The position numbers and the translations under genes were made by a program. A stretch of 64,000 bases of DNA from a virus: positions 1-64,000 of the IMG/VR virus record IMGVR_UViG_3300046457_000118; one strand, 5' to 3'. Under the pieces are notes generated by a model. It did not search any database and was not told where the DNA came from. It saw nothing but the letters and a program-made list of their open reading frames with translations. Positions 8,271 through 58,076 of the stretch are shown here, piece after piece (position 1 is the stretch's first letter; each line of letters starts with the position of its first letter).

Positions 8271-8338
8271 ATTTGCCCAGAGGTAAGTTATACTCTGAGG
8301 CATTATCCCATAGTATTTCCCCCCATCAAGGAGTTTCC

Positions 8339-8764
8339 ATGAAGATTCAATTGCTTCGTCCGAACGTACTCGTCCCAACTCGTGGTACCGATCATGCAGG
8401 AGGCTATGACATCTACATGCCAGAAGCGGGCATCATGATGTCGGGCCACACGTACAAGGTTGGACTGGGTTTCGCTACTGCGATCCCACGAAACCATGTG
8501 GCATTGATCCTGCCGCGTTCGGGAATTGGATCGAAGCATGGGATTGAACTGAACAACACCTGCGGAGTGATCGATGCCGACTATCGGGGGGAATGGTTTG
8601 CCACTCTGAACCAGAAAGCAGGTCACAATCCTCTGGCATGGAAGGCCAGCGAGCGGCTGCTTCAGTTCATCGTGGTTCCTGTCTGGACGCCAGACTTAGA
8701 AGTGGTATATTCGCTCGATAGTACCGAGCGAGGTACCGGTGGCTTGGGTTCGACCGGTCAATAA
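8339..8764 (+). CDS. dut: Trimeric dUTPase
   Basis: Motifs AGGYD, PRSG, GVIDADYRGE, RGTGGLGSTG; RBS ATCAAGGAG before ATG 8339. Confidence 0.93.
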   Translation: MKIQLLRPNVLVPTRGTDHAGGYDIYMPEAGIMMSGHTYKVGLGFATAIPRNHVALILPRSGIGSKHGIELNNTCGVIDADYRGEWFATLNQKAGHNPLAWKASERLLQFIVVPVWTPDLEVVYSLDSTERGTGGLGSTGQ

Positions 8765-8778
8765 CAGAACCCACCATG

Positions 8779-8805
8779 AAAAAAGCCCCTGATAGGGGCT
8801 TTTCT
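8779..8805. terminator. Bidirectional terminator between convergent genes
   Basis: AAAAAAGCCCCT-GAT-AGGGGCTTTT. Confidence 0.8.
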
Positions 8806-8810
8806 CTTTC

Positions 8811-11849: not shown

Positions 11850-12110
11850 GGTTACCTTATCGGCTGTTTATAGTCGGCAAGGTTACCACAAGGAAATCAG
11901 GAAGGAAATGCTACTGGGAAATTATTATATTTTTTGCAAGAAAAGTCTGGGATATTTTTGCTATTTGCCTACGGTTGTAGTGCACAAAATTTAGGCAGAA
12001 GATTTTGGGAAAATTTCATTTTTGCCTACGATGGTAGTACTTACAGCAGCGAACTCAAAATCTAAAACACCCCCCCCCCCATTAAGGTTTTAGGCTCTCC
12101 TGTGCTGTGT
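11850..12110. repeat. AT-rich non-coding region at the probable genome terminus, with imperfect direct repeats and a C11 tract
   Basis: Strand switch between late and early genes; TTTGCCTACG occurs twice, TGGGA...TTTTTGC three times; poly-C at 12070-12080. Confidence 0.6.
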
Positions 12111-36371: not shown

Positions 36372-36485
36372 AAGCCACCTCGTGGGTGGCTTCGGTGTAG
36401 ATAAGGATCACCTTCCTTTCGGTAGTTGATGCGTTGCTCTAAGTAAATAATATTTGCTCAGGGTACTAGCGTCAACTACTTTTTT
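36372..36485 (+). other. Structured convergent intergenic element (short hairpin, 16S-tail-like motif, long G-U hairpin with T6)
   Basis: AAGCCACC/GGTGGCTT; GGATCACCTTCCTTTC; GTAGTTGATGC...GCGTCAACTAC followed by TTTTTT. Confidence 0.5.
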
Positions 36486-36772
36486 CCTGCAAGGGCGGCA
36501 GTCCGACAGATGTTGTACTGACCGCCCACTTCCACCAGCTTGCTTACCGTGGCACCGAAGGAACCGTCACTGAGCGGCGTCAGTTCCGGACACGCTGCGA
36601 TCACCAACGGGTCCGGTCTTGCCGGTAAGGGCTGCGTTGATGTTGCGCAGGACTGAAGGGTCATTGACACAATCATGATAAACAGGATTGTCTCTAACGA
36701 TTGTCTCCACTTGCCCTTTGATGGTCGTGTTGCGTACCACGATCTTACTGATTGCATCTGCTGCTCCTTCAT
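36476..36772 (-). CDS. o-spanin (Rz1-like lipoprotein); true start probably downstream of 36772
   Basis: Lipobox LQSC after hydrophobic stretch, Pro-rich CPEL..L, overlaps i-spanin in another frame. Confidence 0.75.
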   Translation of the reverse strand: MKEQQMQSVRSWYATRPSKGKWRQSLETILFIMIVSMTLQSCATSTQPLPARPDPLVIAACPELTPLSDGSFGATVSKLVEVGGQYNICRTAALAGKK

Positions 36773-36923
36773 TCGCCATTTTGCGAGTATCTTCGATAAC
36801 CTGCTTCAGTTCAGCAGCCTTGGCTTTGTCCGAAGAGGACTTGTAGTCCATGCCAAACCAGAAAGCACCGATTACCGAAGCTATCCACAAGAACACGACG
36901 ATCAACAGTTCATTGATCTTCAT
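36567..36923 (-). CDS. i-spanin (Rz-like)
   Basis: N-terminal TM, coiled coil, PVY.DC; follows endolysin. Confidence 0.8.
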   Translation of the reverse strand: MKINELLIVVFLWIASVIGAFWFGMDYKSSSDKAKAAELKQVIEDTRKMANEGAADAISKIVVRNTTIKGQVETIVRDNPVYHDCVNDPSVLRNINAALTGKTGPVGDRSVSGTDAAQ

Positions 36924-37576
36924 GCCGCATCCCGTTCCAGCGTGTTCAGGGCTGTGTTGGTGGCGTACACACGTTCACTGTAGCCAACGGCATCACCGAT
37001 CTTGTCGGTCATTTTGCCAAGGTTGATGATGTCGGCTACCTTGTCCATCTTGCCCAGTTCAGCCTGTACCAGTGCTCCGGACGTAGCGAAGAACCATCCA
37101 GCCGAACGCATGGCACCTTCAGGAGAACGCAGCCAATCACCGATCTTGGCAGGCTGGATACCGAAGTAGTCAGCCGCCAGGAGTTGGTTCTTCTTGCCGG
37201 TGATCTGGAAGCCACCCGAACCACGATAACGCCAGCCATCGCCGGACTCCGGTGTGCCGTTACCCATGCGACCGGCGTACACGAAGTTCGCCAGTGCTTC
37301 CGGGTTACGGACGTAAGGCAGCGTCATGTCACGTGTCCTGAAACGACTGGGCCAGACTGCCATCAGGCGTTCCGGCGTCGTGTACATCAGGTTCTCGGCC
37401 ATGCGGGATAGGGAGTTGGTTTCCACCGACATCTCGGCCAAGAAATGGGCCACAGCACGGGTGGAACCGATCTTGAATTCGTCCAGTGCCTTGTTGATAT
37501 GGGGGAGGTATTGATTGATCACTGCCGGGCCAGCACCCGACATGATCTTGCCAAGTTGGAGTGCTGAGACTTGCAT
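36920..37576 (-). CDS. Endolysin, GH19 (chitinase/lysozyme-like)
   Basis: HFLAE...E...ENL.Y, ALANFVY..RMGN, GDGWRYRG.G..QITGK.N; ATG overlaps holin TGA. Confidence 0.88.
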   Translation of the reverse strand: MQVSALQLGKIMSGAGPAVINQYLPHINKALDEFKIGSTRAVAHFLAEMSVETNSLSRMAENLMYTTPERLMAVWPSRFRTRDMTLPYVRNPEALANFVYAGRMGNGTPESGDGWRYRGSGGFQITGKKNQLLAADYFGIQPAKIGDWLRSPEGAMRSAGWFFATSGALVQAELGKMDKVADIINLGKMTDKIGDAVGYSERVYATNTALNTLERDAA

Positions 37577-37962
37577 CACATGGCTTCCTTGATGTCTTTG
37601 GCGATCTCGGAGATGTCCTTGTTCTGGTTCTTCTGGATGTAGTTGAAGACCCAGCGTACCAAGGCCCATCCCGGCAAGCCAGCCGCAAAGATGATGCCGA
37701 TGACTGTCATGTTGCCAGTCGCCGTGCCCATCATGGATTGCAGTTGGTAGTGCTCGATGATGAAGGAACCACCGCAGACAGAGGCGATGACCGTGGAGAT
37801 AAGGCCTACAGCCCACTCCCTTGGACTACGTGGTGTCAACATGCACATGACAACGAGGGCGGATAGGCCAGCACCGATGCCTGCCAAGCCTCCAAGTGCC
37901 TTGAAGCCAAAGACACCTGCTGCGGTGCCGGAAATAGGTTCACTCATTGCTTGATCTTTCAT
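37576..37962 (-). CDS. Holin (3 predicted TM) with dual Met start (37962 and 37947)
   Basis: Hydrophobic segments, PRSPREW, GLPGWALVR, charged C-terminus; first gene of lysis cassette. Confidence 0.78.
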   Translation of the reverse strand: MKDQAMSEPISGTAAGVFGFKALGGLAGIGAGLSALVVMCMLTPRSPREWAVGLISTVIASVCGGSFIIEHYQLQSMMGTATGNMTVIGIIFAAGLPGWALVRWVFNYIQKNQNKDISEIAKDIKEAM

Positions 37963-37984
37963 GGTGGGTCGCCAGTGGTTGTGG

Positions 37985-38110
37985 ATGGTGGGTACACCCG
38001 GTGAAGCACTTCACGAGATAGTCCCGTTTCATGCTCCACCGATCCCTTCTGGCGAAAGGAGGACCAGCCATTGCAGCCGGTCATTTGGTGTATCTGCCGT
38101 GGTGGGCAGA
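37985..38110 (-). ncRNA. Four-way-junction structured RNA in lysis-cassette leader
   Basis: Closing helix TACACC/GGTGTA and three arms, with G-U pairs only on the minus strand. Confidence 0.55.
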
Positions 38111-38225
38111 GGGACAAGTGAACTAAAGCACATACAAATGCCTTCCGAGTGGTGTAGAAGGCATTTTACCCTGCCTGAGAGCAATAATTAACTCTCAGAA
38201 TCATTTTGTTCAGGATTTTTGCACA

Positions 38226-38252
38226 TAAAAAAGGAGCCCGAAGGCTCCTTTT
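38226..38252. terminator. Terminator after tail-fibre gene (bidirectional shape)
   Basis: AAAAAAGGAGCC-CGAA-GGCTCCTTTT. Confidence 0.85.
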
Positions 38253-38269: not shown

Positions 38270-41200
38270 TCAATGTGGTACTTGGTCCAAGTCGGTACGT
38301 ACCGATGGCGTAGCCGTCGATCCGGTAGCCGGGAAGGCTACCAAGGTCGGGTCCACATCGACCGTCTGCGGCTGCGGTTGCTGGGCATCCGGGAAGATCG
38401 TGTTGCCTGCCATCGAGTCGGTCGTGCCCTTCTTGGGAGTGATACCACGCACAGTCTGATCCCAGCCTTCCGGACCAATCGTGCCACCCCGCGTGTAGTA
38501 CAACTCGAATGGCGTGACCATCACACACTTGGCCGAGCCGATGAATACGCAGTCCACGAACTTCACGACAGCAGTGCCACCACCTGCCTGAATGACCCAC
38601 GTTTCGCTGAAGTTACCTCCTTGGCTGTTGTCGAGCACACAGTTACGGAAGATGTACTCCTGTTCGGCCTGGAGGTTACCCTCCTGTCCGATACCGATCA
38701 TGTTGCCCTGCGTTGTACCAGGCTTCTTGCGAATGATGGTATTCACCACATGGATGACACCACCGTTCGGCACATCGAGTTCACGAGAATTCATGGCACC
38801 TTCAAGATGGCAGCGATCCAGCAACACGAAGTTGGCACGGGTCTTGAAGTCGTGGCCTTCTACCGCATTGATGTACTGGTTACGCAGGCCATGGTAGCGA
38901 GCACCGTGATTCAGGTAGATGTTGTGGGTCTGTCCCTTCTCGGCAGTCTGGTAGGCGATGCCATTACCATCGAACACGCAGTCGATGTGCTCGATGTTGA
39001 ACTGACCTACCGGAGCCGTATCGGCAGGCTGGACCACACCGCACAACTGGCCATTGTTGCAGTTCGTGGTTTTTACACGCTGCATGACCAGCTTCTGGAC
39101 ACCACCGTTGTAACGCACACCCGAGATGGTTTCGTCCACATCATTGACGGCACCATCAAACCACAGGTCACGGATAGTGACATTGCCAGCTTCAATGTTG
39201 AGCAGACCCTTGCCCCATGCCGCACGAATCGTCTTGTCCATGTGCAGCTTGGGGATGGAACCCAGTTCAGGGGCACCAGCAATCGTGTAGGTACCGGGCT
39301 TTGTCAAGGCTGCGATAACCTCACCCATCTGACCGTCACGAGTCACGTACAGCGTCTGGCCATCTTGCAAAGCCGTGTAACCAGCGGCCATGGTTTCGTA
39401 GGTAGCCAAGCCAATCCGCACCAGTCCGGACACGGTATAGGTACCGACATCTGCATGGCAGAAGAAGAATCCAATTGAACTGTAGACGCCATCCATGTAG
39501 GAGATCATGTTGGGCGACGTGCTGAACACAGGTGCCGCATTGTTCTGGAAGCGGTACTTCTTGTCCAACGTGATCGTACGACCACCCGAGATATCCTGCT
39601 GAAACAGGAAGCTGTAAGTGGTACCGGGCACAGGATTCTTGACCGGTGGCAGCGTCAGATTCGCATCCAGCTTGACAAGGAACAGATTGCCCAACGTACC
39701 GTCGATACGGTCAAGCTGTGCCTGCGTCGTGTTCTGGATGATGACCTCACCCATGACACCACTACCACCCGATCCACCACCACCACCCGAGGAAGCCAAG
39801 GTATCCAGTGCGGTCGCCACGGTACCTGTACGGTGACCCACCAAGGTGGAGCCGTTCGGTCCTGCCAGTGCATCGAACTTGGCATCGATCGCTGCCTTTG
39901 CTGCCAGCACCTGTCCTTTGGCTTCAAGGATTTGCGCCAGAATGGCTTGATCGACTGGTACCGTCGTGGAGATAGAATCCACCACGATGTCCTGCAAGCG
40001 CACCACCGTAGGCTGGTCCACATCCGGCACATAGAACAGGTACACCAAGCCAGCTTCAGATACCGGGTCTTCCATGATCGCGTAGTACGGCGTATCGCAA
40101 GAGACCAGTTCCAGAATCTGCTTGCCATTGGCATCCGTCATACCTTCGATCAGGCGCGGCATCATCACACCATCAACCTGATTCGTGAAGTCCGCTGCCT
40201 TGAGTTGCACCTCGAATCGGCTGTTGGCGATAGGGATATTCTCAGGCGTAATGAAGTGGAACTCTACCAGCGTACCTTCACCTGTCGTCGGCTGTGGATC
40301 AGGCAGAGGATTGGTAACCACCTGCGCTGCCACACTGAAGGTAATGGTGGCCGATTTGGTCGGGTCCGCTACACTGGTAGCGGTGATCGATCCTTGCTGT
40401 ACTGCCGAAGTGGCCACGGGTGCAGTCAGGACACCACCGGCCGTGATGTTGCCCAGCGTGGTAACCCAGGTGACTGCCTGACTTGGGTTATTCGTGCCCT
40501 GTACGAAAGCCGTCAGGTTATATTGGGCACCGCCCTGCAATACCGAACTAAACGATGCCAGTGTGACACCGGTAACGGTTGGCTGTTGCGGCTCAGGATC
40601 AGGAATCACCACCACGAGGGCAGCAATCGTCACCGTGGCCGTACCGAACTTGGTCGAGTCGATCAGGCTTGCAGCCTTGATGGTTACCGTCTGAATCACA
40701 TCAGTCGGTGCCGGTGGCGTGAACACGCCTGCACTGGTGATGGTCCCTGCCGTCGTAGTCCAGCGTACTCCTTGGCTTGGGTTGTTGTCACCATTCACCA
40801 CCGCAGCGAACGTGGCAGCGCCTGTCGCCGTGGAAGGGCTGACCGTCACACCCGTGATGGTAGCAATCGGTACCGGGTCGGTCACTGGCGACTGAGGATA
40901 GCCCGTGATACCGAGGATGGTCACGGCACTGGCACCGGCCTGTGGCAGACTGGTACCGTCTGCATTGGTGAAGGTCAGGATACCCGCGTCATAGTTGCCC
41001 GGTCCCAGATAGACCGAGGCCGTGAACGTATTGGGCGTGACGAGCTTGTTGATCGTCAAGTCCAGACTCTGGGCAATGGCGCCGTTCGGATTGGCGGTTA
41101 GTGCCGGGATGACCAGCGTACCGGAATCTGCATTGGCACAGGTACCGTGCAACGTATAGACCTGACCGCTGATCGGGTCTTGCACCACACTCAGGGCACG

Positions 41201-42478
41201 ACCACCCACGATCTCGCAGCCACCGACATCATTGATGGTTTGCGTGTTGTAGGCAGCGTTGGCGACGAATCCAGCTACCGTGTATTTGCCCACTTTGCAG
41301 CCAGTCAAGACGGCAGAGAAAATACCGCTACCGAAGGTGGCCGGGACATCGATTTGCGACACGGCGTTGTTGCCTATCACCCCGGCAGCAGCAAGGAGAG
41401 ATACCCGTGCACTGTCGATCAAGCCAGTGTAGGTACCTTCCACCGTGACCTGATTACCTGCCACCGTGATCTTGGTAATTTTGCCGGTAGGTGCTGCCAG
41501 AGCCTGCGGATATTCCCAGGCACCGATATCGGCACTGGTGCCCATCTGGCGATTACCGCTGATGGTGGACAGGTTGGTATTACCCGGTGCAGCACCAGTA
41601 TCGATCAGCGGCGAACCCGCCTTCAGGCGCAGGTCATAGGTCGGATCGACGAACACGTCAGTCACCAGAAGATTTTTCAGGTGACCGGTACCGTTCGTGG
41701 TGAACGACCCATCCGAAGCACAGTGGTCATACGTGCCGTACTGCGGGAACATGGTGAGGTCTGCACCGAACACGGCACAGTTGCGCATCACCTTGCTGGC
41801 GTAATAGCTGCCATAGCCCGAGTAGAAGCCAAAACCACCTCGTGCCAGACCGGGCAGGCGGTGGATGGTGTTGTTCTCGCACAGTGCCGGAGAGTTGTCC
41901 GACCACAGACGCACACCATGGCTGTTGGCCGACTTGAGCACGATCTGATTGTTGCGGAAGGTACCGGTAGCAACCTGATTGGCGAACGAGGTAATGACAG
42001 TCGGATCGGTACGCGCATCCGTGCCTGAGTACTCGATCAGGTTGTTCTGGACAGTCGCGTTTGCATTGCCCACACCAAAGGCACCACAGACACCCGTGCC
42101 ACCGCAGTCGATTTGCAGACCTTCGATAGTAAGGTATGCATTGACGGCATTGAACATCACGACACCGTTCAAGGTGCCCCGGAATGCCACACCATTGGCC
42201 GGGTTGTAGCGCAGCGCATTGGTGAGGGAGTTCGGATTGTTGGCATAGCCCTGACCCGCAGCCGGACGAATGGTGATTGTATGGCTTGCATCCGTGATCT
42301 TGTTGGGCAAGGAGATTTGCGAGTTCTGGATGAACTCGGAATCGTTGTACAACTCGATGACATAAGACACATCGGCCGTCACCAGATTGGCAGGAATTGC
42401 CGCCCATGCCGCAGCGATGGTGGCGTAGTCCCGGCCAGATGTGGCGCTACCTACCTTGAGAGTAACGAGAGTAGTCAT
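38270..42478 (-). CDS. Multi-domain tail fibre/tailspike (two beta-helix-like domains, Ig-like repeats)
   Basis: Start MTTLVTL at 42478 after AAAGGA. Pectin-lyase-like N-domain ending DLRLKAGSPLIDTG..DIGAWEY; two Big2-like repeats; fibre-anchor-like domain; C-terminal HNIY..GHDFKTRA beta-helix. Confidence 0.7.
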   Translation of the reverse strand: MTTLVTLKVGSATSGRDYATIAAAWAAIPANLVTADVSYVIELYNDSEFIQNSQISLPNKITDASHTITIRPAAGQGYANNPNSLTNALRYNPANGVAFRGTLNGVVMFNAVNAYLTIEGLQIDCGGTGVCGAFGVGNANATVQNNLIEYSGTDARTDPTVITSFANQVATGTFRNNQIVLKSANSHGVRLWSDNSPALCENNTIHRLPGLARGGFGFYSGYGSYYASKVMRNCAVFGADLTMFPQYGTYDHCASDGSFTTNGTGHLKNLLVTDVFVDPTYDLRLKAGSPLIDTGAAPGNTNLSTISGNRQMGTSADIGAWEYPQALAAPTGKITKITVAGNQVTVEGTYTGLIDSARVSLLAAAGVIGNNAVSQIDVPATFGSGIFSAVLTGCKVGKYTVAGFVANAAYNTQTINDVGGCEIVGGRALSVVQDPISGQVYTLHGTCANADSGTLVIPALTANPNGAIAQSLDLTINKLVTPNTFTASVYLGPGNYDAGILTFTNADGTSLPQAGASAVTILGITGYPQSPVTDPVPIATITGVTVSPSTATGAATFAAVVNGDNNPSQGVRWTTTAGTITSAGVFTPPAPTDVIQTVTIKAASLIDSTKFGTATVTIAALVVVIPDPEPQQPTVTGVTLASFSSVLQGGAQYNLTAFVQGTNNPSQAVTWVTTLGNITAGGVLTAPVATSAVQQGSITATSVADPTKSATITFSVAAQVVTNPLPDPQPTTGEGTLVEFHFITPENIPIANSRFEVQLKAADFTNQVDGVMMPRLIEGMTDANGKQILELVSCDTPYYAIMEDPVSEAGLVYLFYVPDVDQPTVVRLQDIVVDSISTTVPVDQAILAQILEAKGQVLAAKAAIDAKFDALAGPNGSTLVGHRTGTVATALDTLASSGGGGGSGGSGVMGEVIIQNTTQAQLDRIDGTLGNLFLVKLDANLTLPPVKNPVPGTTYSFLFQQDISGGRTITLDKKYRFQNNAAPVFSTSPNMISYMDGVYSSIGFFFCHADVGTYTVSGLVRIGLATYETMAAGYTALQDGQTLYVTRDGQMGEVIAALTKPGTYTIAGAPELGSIPKLHMDKTIRAAWGKGLLNIEAGNVTIRDLWFDGAVNDVDETISGVRYNGGVQKLVMQRVKTTNCNNGQLCGVVQPADTAPVGQFNIEHIDCVFDGNGIAYQTAEKGQTHNIYLNHGARYHGLRNQYINAVEGHDFKTRANFVLLDRCHLEGAMNSRELDVPNGGVIHVVNTIIRKKPGTTQGNMIGIGQEGNLQAEQEYIFRNCVLDNSQGGNFSETWVIQAGGGTAVVKFVDCVFIGSAKCVMVTPFELYYTRGGTIGPEGWDQTVRGITPKKGTTDSMAGNTIFPDAQQPQPQTVDVDPTLVAFPATGSTATPSVRTDLDQVPH

Positions 42479-42489
42479 AAGTTTTTCCT

Positions 42490-45288
42490 TTATTTCGGGC
42501 CGAGTTCGGTAGGTGGCAGCAGCGGACCATGCCCCGGATGCAGGTAAGCCATCTGGTAAGCCAGACCGGCATTGCGCTTGACCAGATAGTCGTCGTAGTA
42601 GCCCTGCATCTTGTCGATGGCCGCTTGCAGACGAGTCTGTGGATAGTCCGGGAAGTAGTCCCGACGCGCCTTCAGGTACTGCATGTACAAGTGAGGGCAC
42701 CCGAAGTGTTCCTCTGCACGACCGTCATAGGCAATGAAGAAGCTCTTGAAACGGAAGGGCGTACCCATGTCCTTGGTCTGTTGACGGGTCAGGGATGGAT
42801 CAGCCGGAGGCATGTAGGTATCTAGCATCACCTTCTGTGCTGCCCAGTCAGCAGGAACATCGGCAGGCGTGTACTGACCTGCCGTCTTGCCCGTGATTGC
42901 AGCCGGGTAGTAGCAGTCACGCATGTCCGTGTCCATGACGTAATCGATGACAAACTTGTCCAGATTACGGATCATCATGTCCAGAGCATCACGGCACTTG
43001 TAGGAGCGTGCACGCATGGCAGCGAACAAGCCGAACTGACGCATGAGCACCAGCGTATGCACGACGTAGAGACCCAGTGAACCACCAGCCGACTGGTAGT
43101 TGTTCCCCGATGCCGTAATCAGCGTACCAAGGTTGCGGATCGCAACTGAGTTAAACGACTGATCGTTATCGACGAAAGCTGGCTTGTAGATCATGTCGTA
43201 CATCAGTTCGAGTTCGATCTGCATACGCGATTCGATCTCTTCCTTCGAGAATCCGAGCCTGTGTTCGGTGGCCAGTTTCCAAGCCACGACATAAGCCAGC
43301 AAACGCCATGCGTGAATACGCTGGTTGTAATAGCCGATTGGACTGGCCGTAGGCGCTGCCTCACCAAGCGACGACAGCCATTGCGTCTCAAAATCATGAC
43401 GCGCAGCGATGGCATGCATGGGGCTGTTGGCCATGATCGCCCACAGACCGGCATTACAGTAGCTGTGCAGTGCATCCCGGTTCCAACCCGAGTAGTACAT
43501 GAAGCCTTCCGGATCGTTGTGGATCTTCCAGCGAGCCTTGCCGTTGACCATACCGCAGGTGTCGATGGTGATTTGCGGACCACCGGGTTGGCCGAGCGGT
43601 GCATAGGCATACTCATTACCATAATAGGAACTGACGAAGAATGCCTTGCCCTGCAAGATGTCTGCCTTCGGCAGGGAATCGAAGGTCTTCACATCACGAA
43701 TCCAGTGATTCGAGTGATTGAAGTAGGCCATTGCCCATTCTTCAGCCATGTCTCGAATCGGTACCAGGCCTTCAGGACGCTGCCAGTTCGGATTGGAAGC
43801 CAAGATAGTCAGTACCGTAGGCGATGTGGCACGGTCAAAACGTACACCACCCATACCCGTGATCCAGTCATGACCACTGACCGAGCCAGCCCGATACTTG
43901 TAGCCCATCGCGCGATACCACGGATAGTGGTCACGATTCGTGAACATGGTCGGATCACGCGGACGTGCCTCATAGGCCGTCAGATAGGTGTCGTCCAGTG
44001 CCTGATCATTCTTCAGCGGATAAGGAGGAAGGACAAACCAGTGAGCCTGACTGTCAAGCTGGGTGTCACTGCTATTCGTCATCGGGAAGAAGGCATTGGC
44101 ACTGCCACCCGCCTTGGCACCGAATACAGGATGGTCATAGGCATACGACTCCACACCGGGCATCCATTTACCTATCTTGGACGACAGACGGGTCCGCATG
44201 TTCTGCCACGGCAGCATCTGCGCACAGTTAAAGCGTGGCATGGCCGGTTCGGTCAGCGTCTGCACTTCGGACAGAAGTGGCGAGTTGATCGCTACCGTTG
44301 GCTTGTCGTTGAATGCCTTCCACTCGTGGGTGAAGACGACGGTGCCATCAGCCAGTTCCAGAGTGACCTTGAACGGTGGCAGCACAGTACGGTCAGCCAC
44401 ATCGGCATTGGAACAGTCACCGTAGGTGTAAGGCCACGTAGCTGCACTGATCAGAGGGTACTGGGCACGGATGAAGGTATCCATGTAAGGATATGTGGCC
44501 CAGCGTTGATAGGGCGCGAAGGACAGCAGCATCTGCTCCAGCGGCATCACCCCATTCTCGGTGTTGTAGTTCGATGCAATCATCAGCAAACCACCCAACT
44601 CGAAGCGGCGTGGTGCGATGGGGCTGGTCCACTTGATCGTATCGTCAAGCTCGTAGATCGCCACGTCACCCGTCTCGGATGCCATACCGGCGTTCTGGTA
44701 CACCCAGTCATCTTGGCGATTGGCTTCGAGGAATCGAGCGGTGCCTACCAATACAGGGCTGGACTCATTGGCACAGTCCCACAGCTTGACAACAGTGGGC
44801 GTGACGGAGCGGATCGGAGGCGCCACTGGACCGGTACCGGAAGGCATCAGGCGAGGCGCCTTGGCACCGGCACCCGATACGAATGCGAACCCGACATTGG
44901 GCGCACCGGTAGGATTGGAAGGCAACAGGTAGTCTTTACCCGAGCCGATCAGGCCAAGCGATGCCTGAAACCATTCGCCATTACCTTCCATACGCAGGGC
45001 TGCGGTACCCGTGGACAGGTCTTTGGCGAGGTTGACGAGGAAGCCACTGAGCAAGCCCAGGCTGGTGATATTGCCCGAAGTGACTGCGAAATCACCGGAC
45101 GAACCGATGTTGAGGAATTCCGTGCCCGATACGACAGGATCGGCACCACCGGCTGGATCATGGTAGCAACGAAGACGACGGGTGTTGCCAAGAATGGTCT
45201 TGAGCTTGGTAGCCCAGTCCAGCTTGGTGGGCGTGAGGGCAAGTTGACCGCCCAGACCCGTACTGAATTTGAATGTTGAAGTTGTCAT
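42490..45288 (-). CDS. Large hypothetical tail-associated protein (932 aa), possibly enzymatic
   Basis: RBS AGGAAG, within tail module, rich in W/Y/H, no family recognised. Confidence 0.55.
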   Translation of the reverse strand: MTTSTFKFSTGLGGQLALTPTKLDWATKLKTILGNTRRLRCYHDPAGGADPVVSGTEFLNIGSSGDFAVTSGNITSLGLLSGFLVNLAKDLSTGTAALRMEGNGEWFQASLGLIGSGKDYLLPSNPTGAPNVGFAFVSGAGAKAPRLMPSGTGPVAPPIRSVTPTVVKLWDCANESSPVLVGTARFLEANRQDDWVYQNAGMASETGDVAIYELDDTIKWTSPIAPRRFELGGLLMIASNYNTENGVMPLEQMLLSFAPYQRWATYPYMDTFIRAQYPLISAATWPYTYGDCSNADVADRTVLPPFKVTLELADGTVVFTHEWKAFNDKPTVAINSPLLSEVQTLTEPAMPRFNCAQMLPWQNMRTRLSSKIGKWMPGVESYAYDHPVFGAKAGGSANAFFPMTNSSDTQLDSQAHWFVLPPYPLKNDQALDDTYLTAYEARPRDPTMFTNRDHYPWYRAMGYKYRAGSVSGHDWITGMGGVRFDRATSPTVLTILASNPNWQRPEGLVPIRDMAEEWAMAYFNHSNHWIRDVKTFDSLPKADILQGKAFFVSSYYGNEYAYAPLGQPGGPQITIDTCGMVNGKARWKIHNDPEGFMYYSGWNRDALHSYCNAGLWAIMANSPMHAIAARHDFETQWLSSLGEAAPTASPIGYYNQRIHAWRLLAYVVAWKLATEHRLGFSKEEIESRMQIELELMYDMIYKPAFVDNDQSFNSVAIRNLGTLITASGNNYQSAGGSLGLYVVHTLVLMRQFGLFAAMRARSYKCRDALDMMIRNLDKFVIDYVMDTDMRDCYYPAAITGKTAGQYTPADVPADWAAQKVMLDTYMPPADPSLTRQQTKDMGTPFRFKSFFIAYDGRAEEHFGCPHLYMQYLKARRDYFPDYPQTRLQAAIDKMQGYYDDYLVKRNAGLAYQMAYLHPGHGPLLPPTELGPK

Positions 45289-45967: not shown

Positions 45968-47583
45968 CGCTTGACCTCAAGAGCATTGATGATGCGGCTG
46001 GTTGCACCGCCATTGACTGACTGTGAATCCAATGAATTGATGCAGAGTGTGTAGGTATGGTTGCCTGCACCAGGTGCATCCTGTATCTGGAAATACACGT
46101 TGCCACGCATACCTTGGTTAGTCGCAGTGACTGGACCATCACAAGTGAACAGTTGGACACCATCACGGTATAGCGCCAGATTCCACTGGGAGACTACGAC
46201 AGTACCTCCCGGAGTACCATCAGGTCCGTCTGTGCTGTATCCAGGGGGATCGACCGCACAACCGAAGCCAATGAGCACAGGGGCACCGCTGGACTGGAAT
46301 GTCAGGGTCTGTACCGTGTTCGATCCGGGATTGATCGTTGCCCTGCCAGCGGAATACGCCGAGACCGCCGTAGTGACCGCATTACCAGCGATCTTGAGCG
46401 TGTCGATGTCGGCTTCACGGATACGTGCTTTATCTATATAGACGACATCACCATCGATGATGAATGGCTTGATCTTCTCTATACCGGTACGACCAATCCA
46501 AAATCGATCCACATCAAAACCGGCCTCAACGATAGTGCCATCGTTGGCGATACCGAAGCCACCAGCCAAGCCATTCACCAAGGTCATGGCAGTCCAGATG
46601 GCAGACACCCGACCCGTCTCTTGATCAATCTTGGCCGCCAAGCCCATCTGGCCTGTTGCACTATCCCCATTCAAGGTGACTTCAACCGTCGTAACCTTCT
46701 GGGCCAGTGCGTGGGTACCATTCGCCAACGAAGTATCCAGTTCCTGCACGGCAGATGCTGCACCATCCACATCCGTACGCAAGGTACTGAGGTTGGTGGC
46801 CAGTGCGGTAGTCGGATCGATGTTGAGCGTCTTGATATCAACGATGGCGCCCTTGGCATCCTGTACTTCCGCATACAGGGCGTTGTACTGCTCCACTGTG
46901 GCAGAACTGTCTTGAAGACGGATGGTCTTCTCTTCGAGGATCGCGGCCATGGCATCATCGACTGCCGCAGCAATGATGTCGAGTTGGCTGACAAAGGCAC
47001 TGTCCGCATCCTGACGCTGGGTGATCTCCTGTCCAATGAAAGTCATGGAGTCGGCAAGACCATTCTGTACCGATGCCAGTGCAGTCTGAAAGGCTGCATT
47101 GCTGGCCAACCGATCTTGAATCTCTTGGTAGATGGCTTGGTTGGTCAGTGTGATACCACCGATGTCTTGACGCAGGGCTTCAGACAGGATGCCACTGTCA
47201 ATCAGACCGGTCAGCGTTTCCAGAGTCTGCCTCGACAACGGTTCAGCCGTCGCCATGACAGGTCCAATACGCTCTCCGCGCGTCCCATGGATCGATACAA
47301 CCTCGACCCAATAGAAGTAATCGGTATTGGAAGTGACTTGTACCTTGTCCAGATAGCTACTGCCCCCTGCATGTTCCAACAAGACAGCCGTTGCATAGTC
47401 TTCGGACGTGCCCCGATATACATCGGTGTAGGCCACCGCATGCGGATTGATCAGCGGGTAGCTCCACGACACCATGATGCCGCCATAGACCGTGCGGGCA
47501 TGCAGGGTGATGTTGTTGTCTGGATCACCGGGTTGAGGGCCACCCCAACCACCCGTACCACAGACGTTGTTTTCGCAAGACAT
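45964..47583 (-). CDS. Tail protein with FN3-like domain, coiled coil and J-like C-terminus
   Basis: Start MSCENN after GGAG; YFYW, VNGLAGGFGI, FDVDRFWI, PFIIDGDVVYIDKARI. Confidence 0.75.
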   Translation of the reverse strand: MSCENNVCGTGGWGGPQPGDPDNNITLHARTVYGGIMVSWSYPLINPHAVAYTDVYRGTSEDYATAVLLEHAGGSSYLDKVQVTSNTDYFYWVEVVSIHGTRGERIGPVMATAEPLSRQTLETLTGLIDSGILSEALRQDIGGITLTNQAIYQEIQDRLASNAAFQTALASVQNGLADSMTFIGQEITQRQDADSAFVSQLDIIAAAVDDAMAAILEEKTIRLQDSSATVEQYNALYAEVQDAKGAIVDIKTLNIDPTTALATNLSTLRTDVDGAASAVQELDTSLANGTHALAQKVTTVEVTLNGDSATGQMGLAAKIDQETGRVSAIWTAMTLVNGLAGGFGIANDGTIVEAGFDVDRFWIGRTGIEKIKPFIIDGDVVYIDKARIREADIDTLKIAGNAVTTAVSAYSAGRATINPGSNTVQTLTFQSSGAPVLIGFGCAVDPPGYSTDGPDGTPGGTVVVSQWNLALYRDGVQLFTCDGPVTATNQGMRGNVYFQIQDAPGAGNHTYTLCINSLDSQSVNGGATSRIINALEVKR

Positions 47584-47659: not shown

Positions 47660-47686
47660 ATTATCTCATTGTTCTATGTATGTCAA
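47660..47686 (-). promoter_or_regulatory. Sigma70-type late promoter for tail module
   Basis: TTGACA-15 nt-GATAAT with extended TGn. Similar TGn-10 boxes occur before portal (ATGGGATAAT) and the 932-aa gene (ATGGCACAAT). Confidence 0.45.
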
Positions 47687-57719: not shown

Positions 57720-57729
57720 TTGCTGACCG

Positions 57730-58076
57730 TCACCCTCACGAAACGAGGGCAAACCTTTCAAATGGGTAGAGTAAAAATATCCCTCGGCATAAACGAGGGA
57801 CCACACAGAGAGGCTTTCTCGGATGCATAGGGGCATGCTCACATGTTCCCTTATAAGCCTGACACCTTGAAAGTCTCTCTGTGTGGTGACGTGCAATGCT
57901 GATGCACAGGCAGGCTCCCAGTTAATTCCTTTTCTGGCAGCTTGCTGTCGGTGGAGATGGATTTCCATGGGGGCCGACAAGCCGGATGAAGACAGCACCG
58001 GCCACCACTACATACCTGTTCCGGGAAGGATGGGTAAGCAGAAGAAGAAAGCCCCCTCACGGGGGCTTTTCTTTTT
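57730..58076 (+). ncRNA. Candidate ~340-nt structured non-coding RNA
   Basis: At least eight helices including an 18-bp stem; G-U pairs consistent with + strand; ends at terminator. Confidence 0.55.
58047..58076. terminator. Bidirectional terminator
   Basis: GAAAGCCCCC-TCAC-GGGGGCTTTTCTTTTT. Confidence 0.85.

Follow-up and report, generated by a model that had tools for sequence, protein, structure and literature searches.

An orphan folded RNA element in the putative lysis-cassette leader of an N4-like phage

The lysis genes of an N4-like phage are preceded by an orphan folded RNA element of putative function, which adds a variant to the known structured leaders before holin genes. The element lies in IMG/VR virus record IMGVR_UViG_3300046457_000118, a sequence of 76,358 bp rated complete by CheckV, of which the first 64 kb (positions 1 to 64,000) form the window analysed here. 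It is a cloverleaf of 100 nt on the minus strand (37993..38092), made of a closing helix and three arms, and is situated between the terminator of a tail-fibre gene and a holin-like gene. Based on comparisons with shuffled sequences, with the opposite strand and with other gaps of the genome, the structure is genuine, strand-specific and well beyond chance. Our tentative reading, to which we assign a probability of roughly 45%, is that the element forms the core of a lineage-specific, non-coding, cis-acting 5' leader affecting the translation or stability of the lysis mRNA.

Strength and strand specificity of the fold

Folding of positions 38095-37985 of the minus strand (111 nt) with RNAfold returned the four-way junction as both the minimum-free-energy (MFE) and the centroid structure. 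A closing helix of 6 bp (38092-38087 paired with 37998-37993) encloses arm 1 (38082-38062, with a 3-nt loop), arm 2 (38060-38043) and arm 3 (38041-37999, with a CUA triloop), which comprise 8, 7 and 11+6 bp, respectively, and are joined by linkers of 4, 1, 1 and 0 nt. An earlier note on this DNA, made from the letters alone, had quoted the minus-strand sequence at 38092-37985 together with its pairings, and both proved exact, as did its description of a tight junction and of a symmetric GAA/GAA internal loop, seen by RNAfold as a 3x3 loop in arm 3. The anti-Shine-Dalgarno-like string that it had singled out, CCTCCTTTC at 38062-38054, is present and mostly paired; its partner is GAAGGGA in arm 2, the arm in which an anti-Shine-Dalgarno-like strand pairs with a Shine-Dalgarno (SD)-like strand.

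The 111-nt core has a folding energy of -54.5 kcal/mol, compared with -32.2 +/- 3.6 kcal/mol in 200 dinucleotide shuffles (z -6.2), none of which was as good. On the plus strand, the same core reaches -37.7 kcal/mol (z -1.7). The fold is strand-specific because 6 of its 38 pairs are G-U, in keeping with the earlier statement that its wobble pairs work only on the minus strand, and the asymmetry between the two strands indicates an RNA-level feature of the strand carrying the lysis genes. An element acting at the level of DNA, such as a hairpin promoter of the N4 type, serving the virion or the middle RNA polymerase, or a site of recombination or replication, appears very improbable. The DNA hairpin promoters that N4-like phages do possess have short stems and loops of 3-4 nt (PMC9163698), and arms 1 and 3 both end in 3-nt loops; however, a fold that is much weaker on the other strand is unexpected for a DNA cruciform, the early-promoter-like repeat TTGCCTACGNTNGTAGT (11965, 12022) is absent from the leader, and lysis genes are late genes, which are transcribed by the host polymerase in N4-like phages.

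Within the genome, the 110-nt segment 37981-38090(-) ranks eighth of about 5080 minus-strand segments after GC correction (top 0.2%). The genome contains 17 intergenic gaps of at least 90 nt, 11 of them co-directional, and among these 11 the 307-nt gap around the element is the most strongly folded on the transcribed strand (z -7.7); none of the other 10 goes beyond z -4.4 on the strand of its flanking genes, and most lie between 0 and -2.5. The sole comparable gap is a convergent one (57720-58074), which separates an operon on the plus strand from the converging 3' end of the gene for the virion RNA polymerase. No gap of the genome folds more strongly than that one, with z -8.2 for the plus strand and -5.4 for the minus strand, and it probably carries stacked bidirectional terminators. 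Paralogy between it and the holin leader was rejected, their alignment being at chance level.

The three arms are robust, with pair probabilities of 0.78-1.0 in every context tested. The closing helix has a pair probability of 0.97 in isolation, which falls to 0.22-0.36 with flanking RNA, as a local GGUG/CACC hairpin competes with it in longer transcripts. Because the helix is weak in context, a safer description is that of three neighbouring hairpins, which possibly come together in a four-way junction. They are the last and most stable of six hairpins into which the whole gap folds on the minus strand (263-nt fold, z -6.1), and the three further hairpins that had been reported upstream of the cloverleaf were all recovered. 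Leader hairpin 1 (38175..38198), with 8 bp and an 8-nt loop, is part of the MFE and centroid structures of the 263-nt gap. Leader hairpin 2 (38136..38166) is terminator-like, with an 11-bp stem followed by UUUGUAUGUGCUUU and a loop containing UACACCAC; this loop exceeds the limit of the consensus scan for terminators, from which the hairpin is missing. Leader hairpin 3 (38093..38110; UCUGCC-CACCAC-GGCAGA) directly abuts the closing helix, with 0 nt between them. The cloverleaf itself is not an intrinsic terminator, since no U-run follows any arm or the closing helix.

The holin start region and the proposed role of the leader

Downstream of the fold, the holin-like gene (37576..37962, minus strand; phrog_1024, E 2e-40) encodes a protein with three hydrophobic segments and a charged C-terminus, whose N-terminus reads M-K-D-Q-A-M-S-E-P. 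Judged by its sequence, the gene has a class-I, lambda-S-like layout with a dual-start motif: two close in-frame AUGs (M1 at 37962-37960 and M6 at 37947-37945), a basic residue in the extension, a holin with several hydrophobic segments, and endolysin and spanin genes downstream. Several other genes of the phage are preceded by an AGGAG-type SD; the holin gene has none.

Much of this start region is common to the holin family, which occurs widely in phages and prophages of Burkholderiales (Massilia, Cupriavidus, Ralstonia) and Acinetobacter. The second Met and the residues after it are invariant in 16 aligned homologues, half of which open with M-K-x3 (one with M-K-x4). Among 38 distinct homologous start regions, 25 show M-K-x3-M, the two AUGs lying exactly 15 nt apart; upstream of M1, none of these 25 has an SD-like motif, and most are C/A-rich, often with CACCCAC or CCACC directly 5' of the AUG. 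Codons 2-3 (AAR G) provide the sole SD-like motif for the second start in the family, and a terminator-like hairpin with a T-run ends 2-17 nt before M1 in 6 of the 10 distinct loci checked on viral contigs. We infer that the SD-less, C/A-rich, M-K-x3-M start region is the family-typical part of the leader and that the folded domain is an addition of this lineage. The 26-nt dual-start region (37938-37963, minus strand) differs by one base from that of another locus (L006:3001-3026), although the two holins are 59% identical, which suggests a nucleotide-level constraint on the start region; an exact-pattern scan of metagenome contigs for these 26 nt found nothing. The phrog_1024 family is annotated as 'unknown function', and as 'ammonia monooxygenase' in some Acinetobacter phages.

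The fold and the M1 AUG are separated by a C-rich, G-poor spacer of 30 nt (37963..37992, minus strand) with 17 C, 8 A, 3 G and 2 U (57% C, 10% G), which lacks an SD and is mostly unpaired (mean unpaired probability 0.67). Three copies of the motif CCCACCA fall within 145 nt of the leader, on the minus strand: one in the loop of hairpin 3 (38100-38106), one directly after the closing helix (37986-37992) and one ending in the A of the M1 AUG (37962-37968), the last two copies belonging to the spacer. The whole 76-kb genome has 7 copies on this strand, 3 of them here (Poisson tail 1e-6), and the shorter CACCA occurs five times in the leader, all copies being mostly unpaired in the ensemble. A triple occurrence by chance is unlikely. 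Copy 3 represents the pre-AUG motif typical of the family, and copies 1 and 2 accompany the added folded domain.

Sites of Rho loading (rut sites) are C-rich, G-poor and unstructured, with a typical span of about 60-80 nt, and in lambda tR1 the elements rutA and rutB flank the boxB hairpin. The leader might similarly be a Rho-dependent attenuator, in which the CCCACCA segments form a split rut site held by the folded domain, and Rho terminates inside the poorly translated holin gene unless ribosomes load. The composition and openness of the 30 nt before the AUG fit such a site, C-rich motifs flank the folded domain on both sides, the SD-less holin start is presumably weak, and the host RNA polymerase, which is subject to Rho, transcribes the late genes of N4-like phages (PMC9163698). 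We nevertheless consider Rho-dependent attenuation improbable: the open C-rich stretch of about 30 nt is shorter than a typical rut site, the argument is one of composition only, and the same C/A-rich pre-AUG context is found in homologues that start 2-17 nt after a terminator and have no folded domain, which better fits a role in translation.

A leader acting in cis on the lysis mRNA, the reading we favour, fits the anatomy of the region, which is non-coding, folds on the lysis-gene strand only and extends from a terminator to an SD-less, dual-start holin gene; to this extent, the suggestion in the earlier note of a putative cis-regulator of lysis timing is partly supported. The folded domain would lock G-rich segments in local hairpins and thereby leave a C/A-rich ribosome-loading platform open. 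It may also equip the mRNA with a 5' domain that is stable and perhaps processed by a nuclease; in size, arm 3, with its roughly 20 bp and internal loop, corresponds to an RNase III site. Acting with the tandem terminator-like hairpins, the folded domain could hold holin synthesis low and late. Translation of the whole cassette depends on the holin start site, because stop and start codons overlap (GTGATG, ATGA) at the holin/endolysin and endolysin/Rz borders. In the N4-like phage LUZ7, late genes are expressed from weak promoters of the host sigma70 type, and leaky terminators make up more than 60% of the total (PMC9163698). Low and late synthesis of the holin would fit a phage type with host-polymerase late transcription, weak promoters and leaky terminators.

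The possible processing of arm 3 has a parallel in the RNase III hairpins of the T7 R-sites and the lambda N leader, which arm 3 may resemble in its length of about 20 bp, in the internal loop that interrupts it and in its intercistronic position between a terminator and a translation start. To our knowledge, no T7-type site has been described with such a 3x3 GAA/GAA loop, in which tandem sheared G-A pairs are possible.

The closest functional precedent is the start region of lambda S, where an upstream 'sdi' stem-loop and an intragenic stem-loop accompany the Met1/Met3 starts. Stem-loops flanking this region set the Met1/Met3 partition, and with it the holin:antiholin ratio and hence the lysis time (10.1101/2025.05.14.654169). 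In both phages, RNA structure precedes a class-I holin gene with two in-frame starts, of which the longer product begins M-K, and the lambda late leader (pR'-tR'-S, 44800-45200) is also strongly folded (z -5.5). N4 gp62 has likewise been described as reminiscent of a lambda-like dual start (PMC12642591). The resemblance does not extend to sequence, as a covariance model built from our fold scores at best 7.4 bits on the lambda leader, on the wrong strand, and no sequence similarity was found. Nor does it extend to design: lambda has a single small stem-loop over the SD, whereas here a three-arm domain of 100 nt ends 30 nt before the AUG of a gene that has no SD to cover. Within the holin gene, an intragenic hairpin (GGCACC...GGUGUC, 37912-37929, minus strand) lies 34-51 nt after M1, near the position of the downstream stem-loop of lambda S; its conservation was unsupported in the family alignment.

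Lysis timing is a main fitness parameter of phages, and N4-type phages are known for delayed lysis; we know of few RNA-level controls of holin synthesis that are understood besides the lambda S start region. The leader offers a compact test bed, in which a folded domain of 100 nt and a repeated C-rich motif come together with an SD-less dual-start site conserved in a widespread holin family. It raises the questions of how an SD-less holin start is used and whether a lineage can add an RNA domain to retune it.

Relatives of the element and comparison with known RNA families

The covariance model built from the single sequence of the fold (R1) found only itself, without a match in four complete N4-like relatives, in the lambda late leader or in 30 kb of LUZ7. 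The genome holds no second copy of the element, a nucleotide search of the phage collection gave no match to the stretch, and an exact-pattern scan of viral contigs with a 20-mer of arm 3 found nothing. Searches by tblastn with the holin and with a neighbouring protein of 438 amino acids returned only distant phages. N4-like relatives identified by their portal protein are at most 61% identical and include five complete genomes (G001-G005, portal 50-58% identical), in none of which was a homologue of this holin or this endolysin found. The closest holins, 68-73% identical (P0002-P0004), are on ENA/Logan contigs, two of about 78 kb, a size typical of N4-like phages, and one of 5.1 kb, that are separate from the compared loci described below. 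Sequence comparison thus portrays the lysis cassette as a mosaic module, common to temperate-type phages of Burkholderiales and Acinetobacter, and the folded leader as lineage-specific, because N4-like relatives lack the module and holin homologues lack the leader.

Several results weigh against a functional cis-acting leader. The holin homologues compared, at 80 loci each in viral and in metagenome contigs (43-59% identity), yielded no covariance-model match to the leader fold (a single hit of 11 bits had E = 2) and no blastn similarity across these approximately 160 loci. The comparison among homologous holin leaders that the earlier note had proposed therefore turned out negative: the family has homologues without such a leader and does not need the fold. 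In the 33 distinct loci with a locatable holin start, the upstream gap is mostly 11-128 nt, and two longer gaps (L152 and L174) are unstructured (z +2.0 and +0.6). No secondary structure is shared across the start regions of the family. The fold rests on a single sequence, with neither covariation nor a homologue, its closing helix is marginal in context, and the mosaic junction at which it lies makes non-functional spacer DNA plausible. No convincing promoter for a lysis-gene transcript was found by consensus scan; a weak promoter-like pair overlapping hairpin 1, seen by eye and absent from that scan, consists of TTAATT (38191-38186) and TAAAAT (38168-38163) separated by 17 nt. Finally, a predicted long-range helix between 38123-38114 and 37947-37938, which masks the M6 AUG in MFE folds, was set aside as evidence because it is no better than chance (duplex energy -12.7 compared with -13.2 +/- 2.1 in shuffles, the same as elsewhere in the genome).

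Some of these results would be expected if the structure were incidental, that is, if the gap were leftover spacer at the junction of the tail-fibre and lysis modules, its hairpins were tandem terminators or insulators or had no function, and the cloverleaf outline were a by-product of three neighbouring GC-rich hairpins. An incidental origin is consistent with the mosaic lysis module, whose holin and endolysin are missing from 5/5 complete N4-like relatives, with holin homologues elsewhere that have no leader, and with the closing-helix probability of 0.22-0.36 in context. Other segments of the genome, some of them coding, match the GC-corrected MFE of the element, and both hairpin 2 and the terminator of the tail-fibre gene are terminator-like. 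Against this explanation, the z of -7.7 for the gap is far beyond that of the other 10 co-directional gaps, the strands differ markedly (-54.5 and -37.7 kcal/mol), the junction is tight (linkers of 4, 1, 1 and 0 nt), and the triple CCCACCA, which echoes the pre-AUG motif of the family, is improbable by chance. Spare DNA of this length would also be unusual in a compact genome whose gaps are mostly shorter than 100 nt. On balance, we regard an incidental structure as unlikely, though as an explanation that carries real weight. Were it correct, the element would serve as a calibration point, showing that without covariation even a z of about -7 for an intergenic gap of a phage is no proof of function.

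The earlier note had alternatively proposed a processed small RNA, by analogy with the RNase P-processed phage cloverleafs P1 C4 and P4 CI. Such an RNA would be cut from the leader as a tRNA-like RNase P substrate, acting in trans or leaving, by its excision, the mature 5' end of the holin mRNA. The topology of a four-way junction, in which a 0-nt linker makes arm 3 contiguous with the closing helix, is compatible with this proposal, and the closing helix is followed by C and CCA in the register of tRNA N73-C74-C75-A76. LUZ7 also makes abundant late non-coding RNAs of up to about 250 nt in its orf69-orf70 gap (sRNA1-3), one of them apparently processed (PMC9163698). The LUZ7 RNAs are similar to the element in being non-coding and in occupying an intergenic gap of an N4-like phage; they differ in lying at the end of the replication gene block rather than in the lysis cassette, and R1 does not match them.

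Comparison with known RNA families gave no support for the analogy to P1 C4 and P4 CI. A scan of Rfam 15 at E <= 10, with queries of 1.2 kb and 156 nt, produced no family match, the best scores being 12-24 bits compared with gathering scores of 33-229, and tRNA (RF00005), tmRNA, C4, STnc100 (RF02076) and the models of CRISPR (clustered regularly interspaced short palindromic repeats) repeats were not among the matches. ARAGORN, run by default and with plain -ps, predicted no gene in the region, in the window or in the genome as a whole; calls appeared only at -ps70 or in mitochondrial mode and were treated as spurious. That the element is not a tRNA, as had been stated, is therefore borne out: it has no T-loop, its helix is 6 rather than 7 bp, its arm sizes are wrong, and the only TTCG in the cloverleaf is the loop of arm 2 (TTCGCCA), where C replaces the conserved A58. 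The CCA-like tail held in part, since C-CCA does follow the closing helix, but it is one copy of a CCCACCA motif present three times in the leader, also where no helix precedes it.

The element and the C4 RNAs (P1 C4, P4 CI) are alike in being small multi-helix phage RNAs with a CCA-containing 3' side. The analogy fails beyond this, as there is no Rfam match, no T-loop, a 5' linker of 0 nt, no following terminator or U-run, and a closing helix that is weak in context; the element, moreover, has neither an immunity-region context nor evident target complementarity, and sits in an mRNA leader instead of an antisense operon. RNase P substrates normally have a single-stranded 5' leader, whereas hairpin 3 directly abuts the closing helix here. 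As the element further has no promoter or terminator of its own, and the LUZ7 RNAs occupy another genome position, we give a processed or stand-alone small RNA a low probability, and the RNase P part of the original proposal is weak. A more elaborate version, slightly less probable still, is a tRNA-mimicking module in which RNase P of the host, recognising the acceptor-like helix and the C-CCA in tRNA register, would cut a read-through transcript at 38093/38092. The cut would free a stable folded RNA some 100 nt long and leave the SD-less holin mRNA in its mature form, while the extra CCCACCA copies would act as decoys for a factor that loads at the pre-AUG motif of the family.

Gene context, excluded readings and further observations

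The gene set assigns the phage to the N4-like (Schitoviridae-type) group, with a virion RNA polymerase (phrog_2206, 1024 bits), rIIA, rIIB, DNA polymerase, portal and large terminase. Two public DNA sequencing runs contain the stretch, both of them rhizosphere metagenomes that may be the source samples, and both are identical to the window without variants; no RNA sequencing run containing it is listed. Upstream of the leader, a minus-strand operon of about 11 kb begins near 47,580 and passes through tail-fibre genes to a gene encoding a fibre of 1402 amino acids (38270-42478). A sigma70-type pair near consensus (TTGACA-15 nt-GATAAT with a TGn extension) lies at 47660-47686 (minus strand), ahead of this operon, whose end is at the lysis cassette.

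The fibre gene is followed by the terminator T1 (38227..38252, minus strand), then by 264 nt without a recognisable gene and then by the lysis cassette. Read from the sequence, T1 consists of a stem of 10 bp (AAAAGGAGCC / GGCUCCUUUU) with a UUCG loop, and of a U6 run; it corresponds to the definition of an intrinsic terminator and appears in the MFE fold of the wide context, and is not listed by the consensus scan. Downstream of the holin gene, the rest of the cassette spans 36476..37579 on the minus strand and comprises an endolysin (36920..37579; phrog_181, E 3e-51), an Rz-like spanin (36567..36923) and an Rz1-like spanin (36476..36772).

Coding explanations of the gap found no support. Five open reading frames in the gap were compared with a protein collection, in which none is present, and a six-frame tblastn of the gap against 119 related loci, aimed at a pseudogene remnant, found nothing. 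The only one of these frames with an SD-like motif (GAAGGGA) has 30 codons (38032-37940) and a stop that overlaps the M6 AUG; its codon usage, judged to be non-coding, scores -0.27, intermediate between the values for coding (0.35) and non-coding (-0.63) sequence, its start is buried in arm 3, and it is absent from protein collections. We also rejected a duplication of the 5' end of the holin gene, as suggested by the common CATGAAA...GTGAA, because the local alignment score was at chance. Hairpin 3 contains GTTCAC and a CUGCC/GGCAG stem, as might a degenerate type I-F CRISPR repeat or an RNA anti-CRISPR; the likeness is treated as coincidence, as 8 nt separate GTTCAC from the stem, the 3' handle differs, and no CRISPR-DR model matched at E <= 10.

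Elsewhere in the window, a long, apparently non-coding stretch at 8271-8810 (minus strand) follows a strong terminator (AAAAGCCCCUAUCAGGGGCUUUUUU) and lies upstream of the portal gene, whose start codon is uncertain; it is among the most stable segments on both strands. In the divergent early region, the repeat TTGCCTACGNTNGTAGT occurs at 11965-11981 and 12022-12038 on the plus strand, 57 nt apart, with 0.07 matches expected by chance. Each copy contains a short hairpin, and the two represent a candidate pair of early promoters for the virion RNA polymerase.

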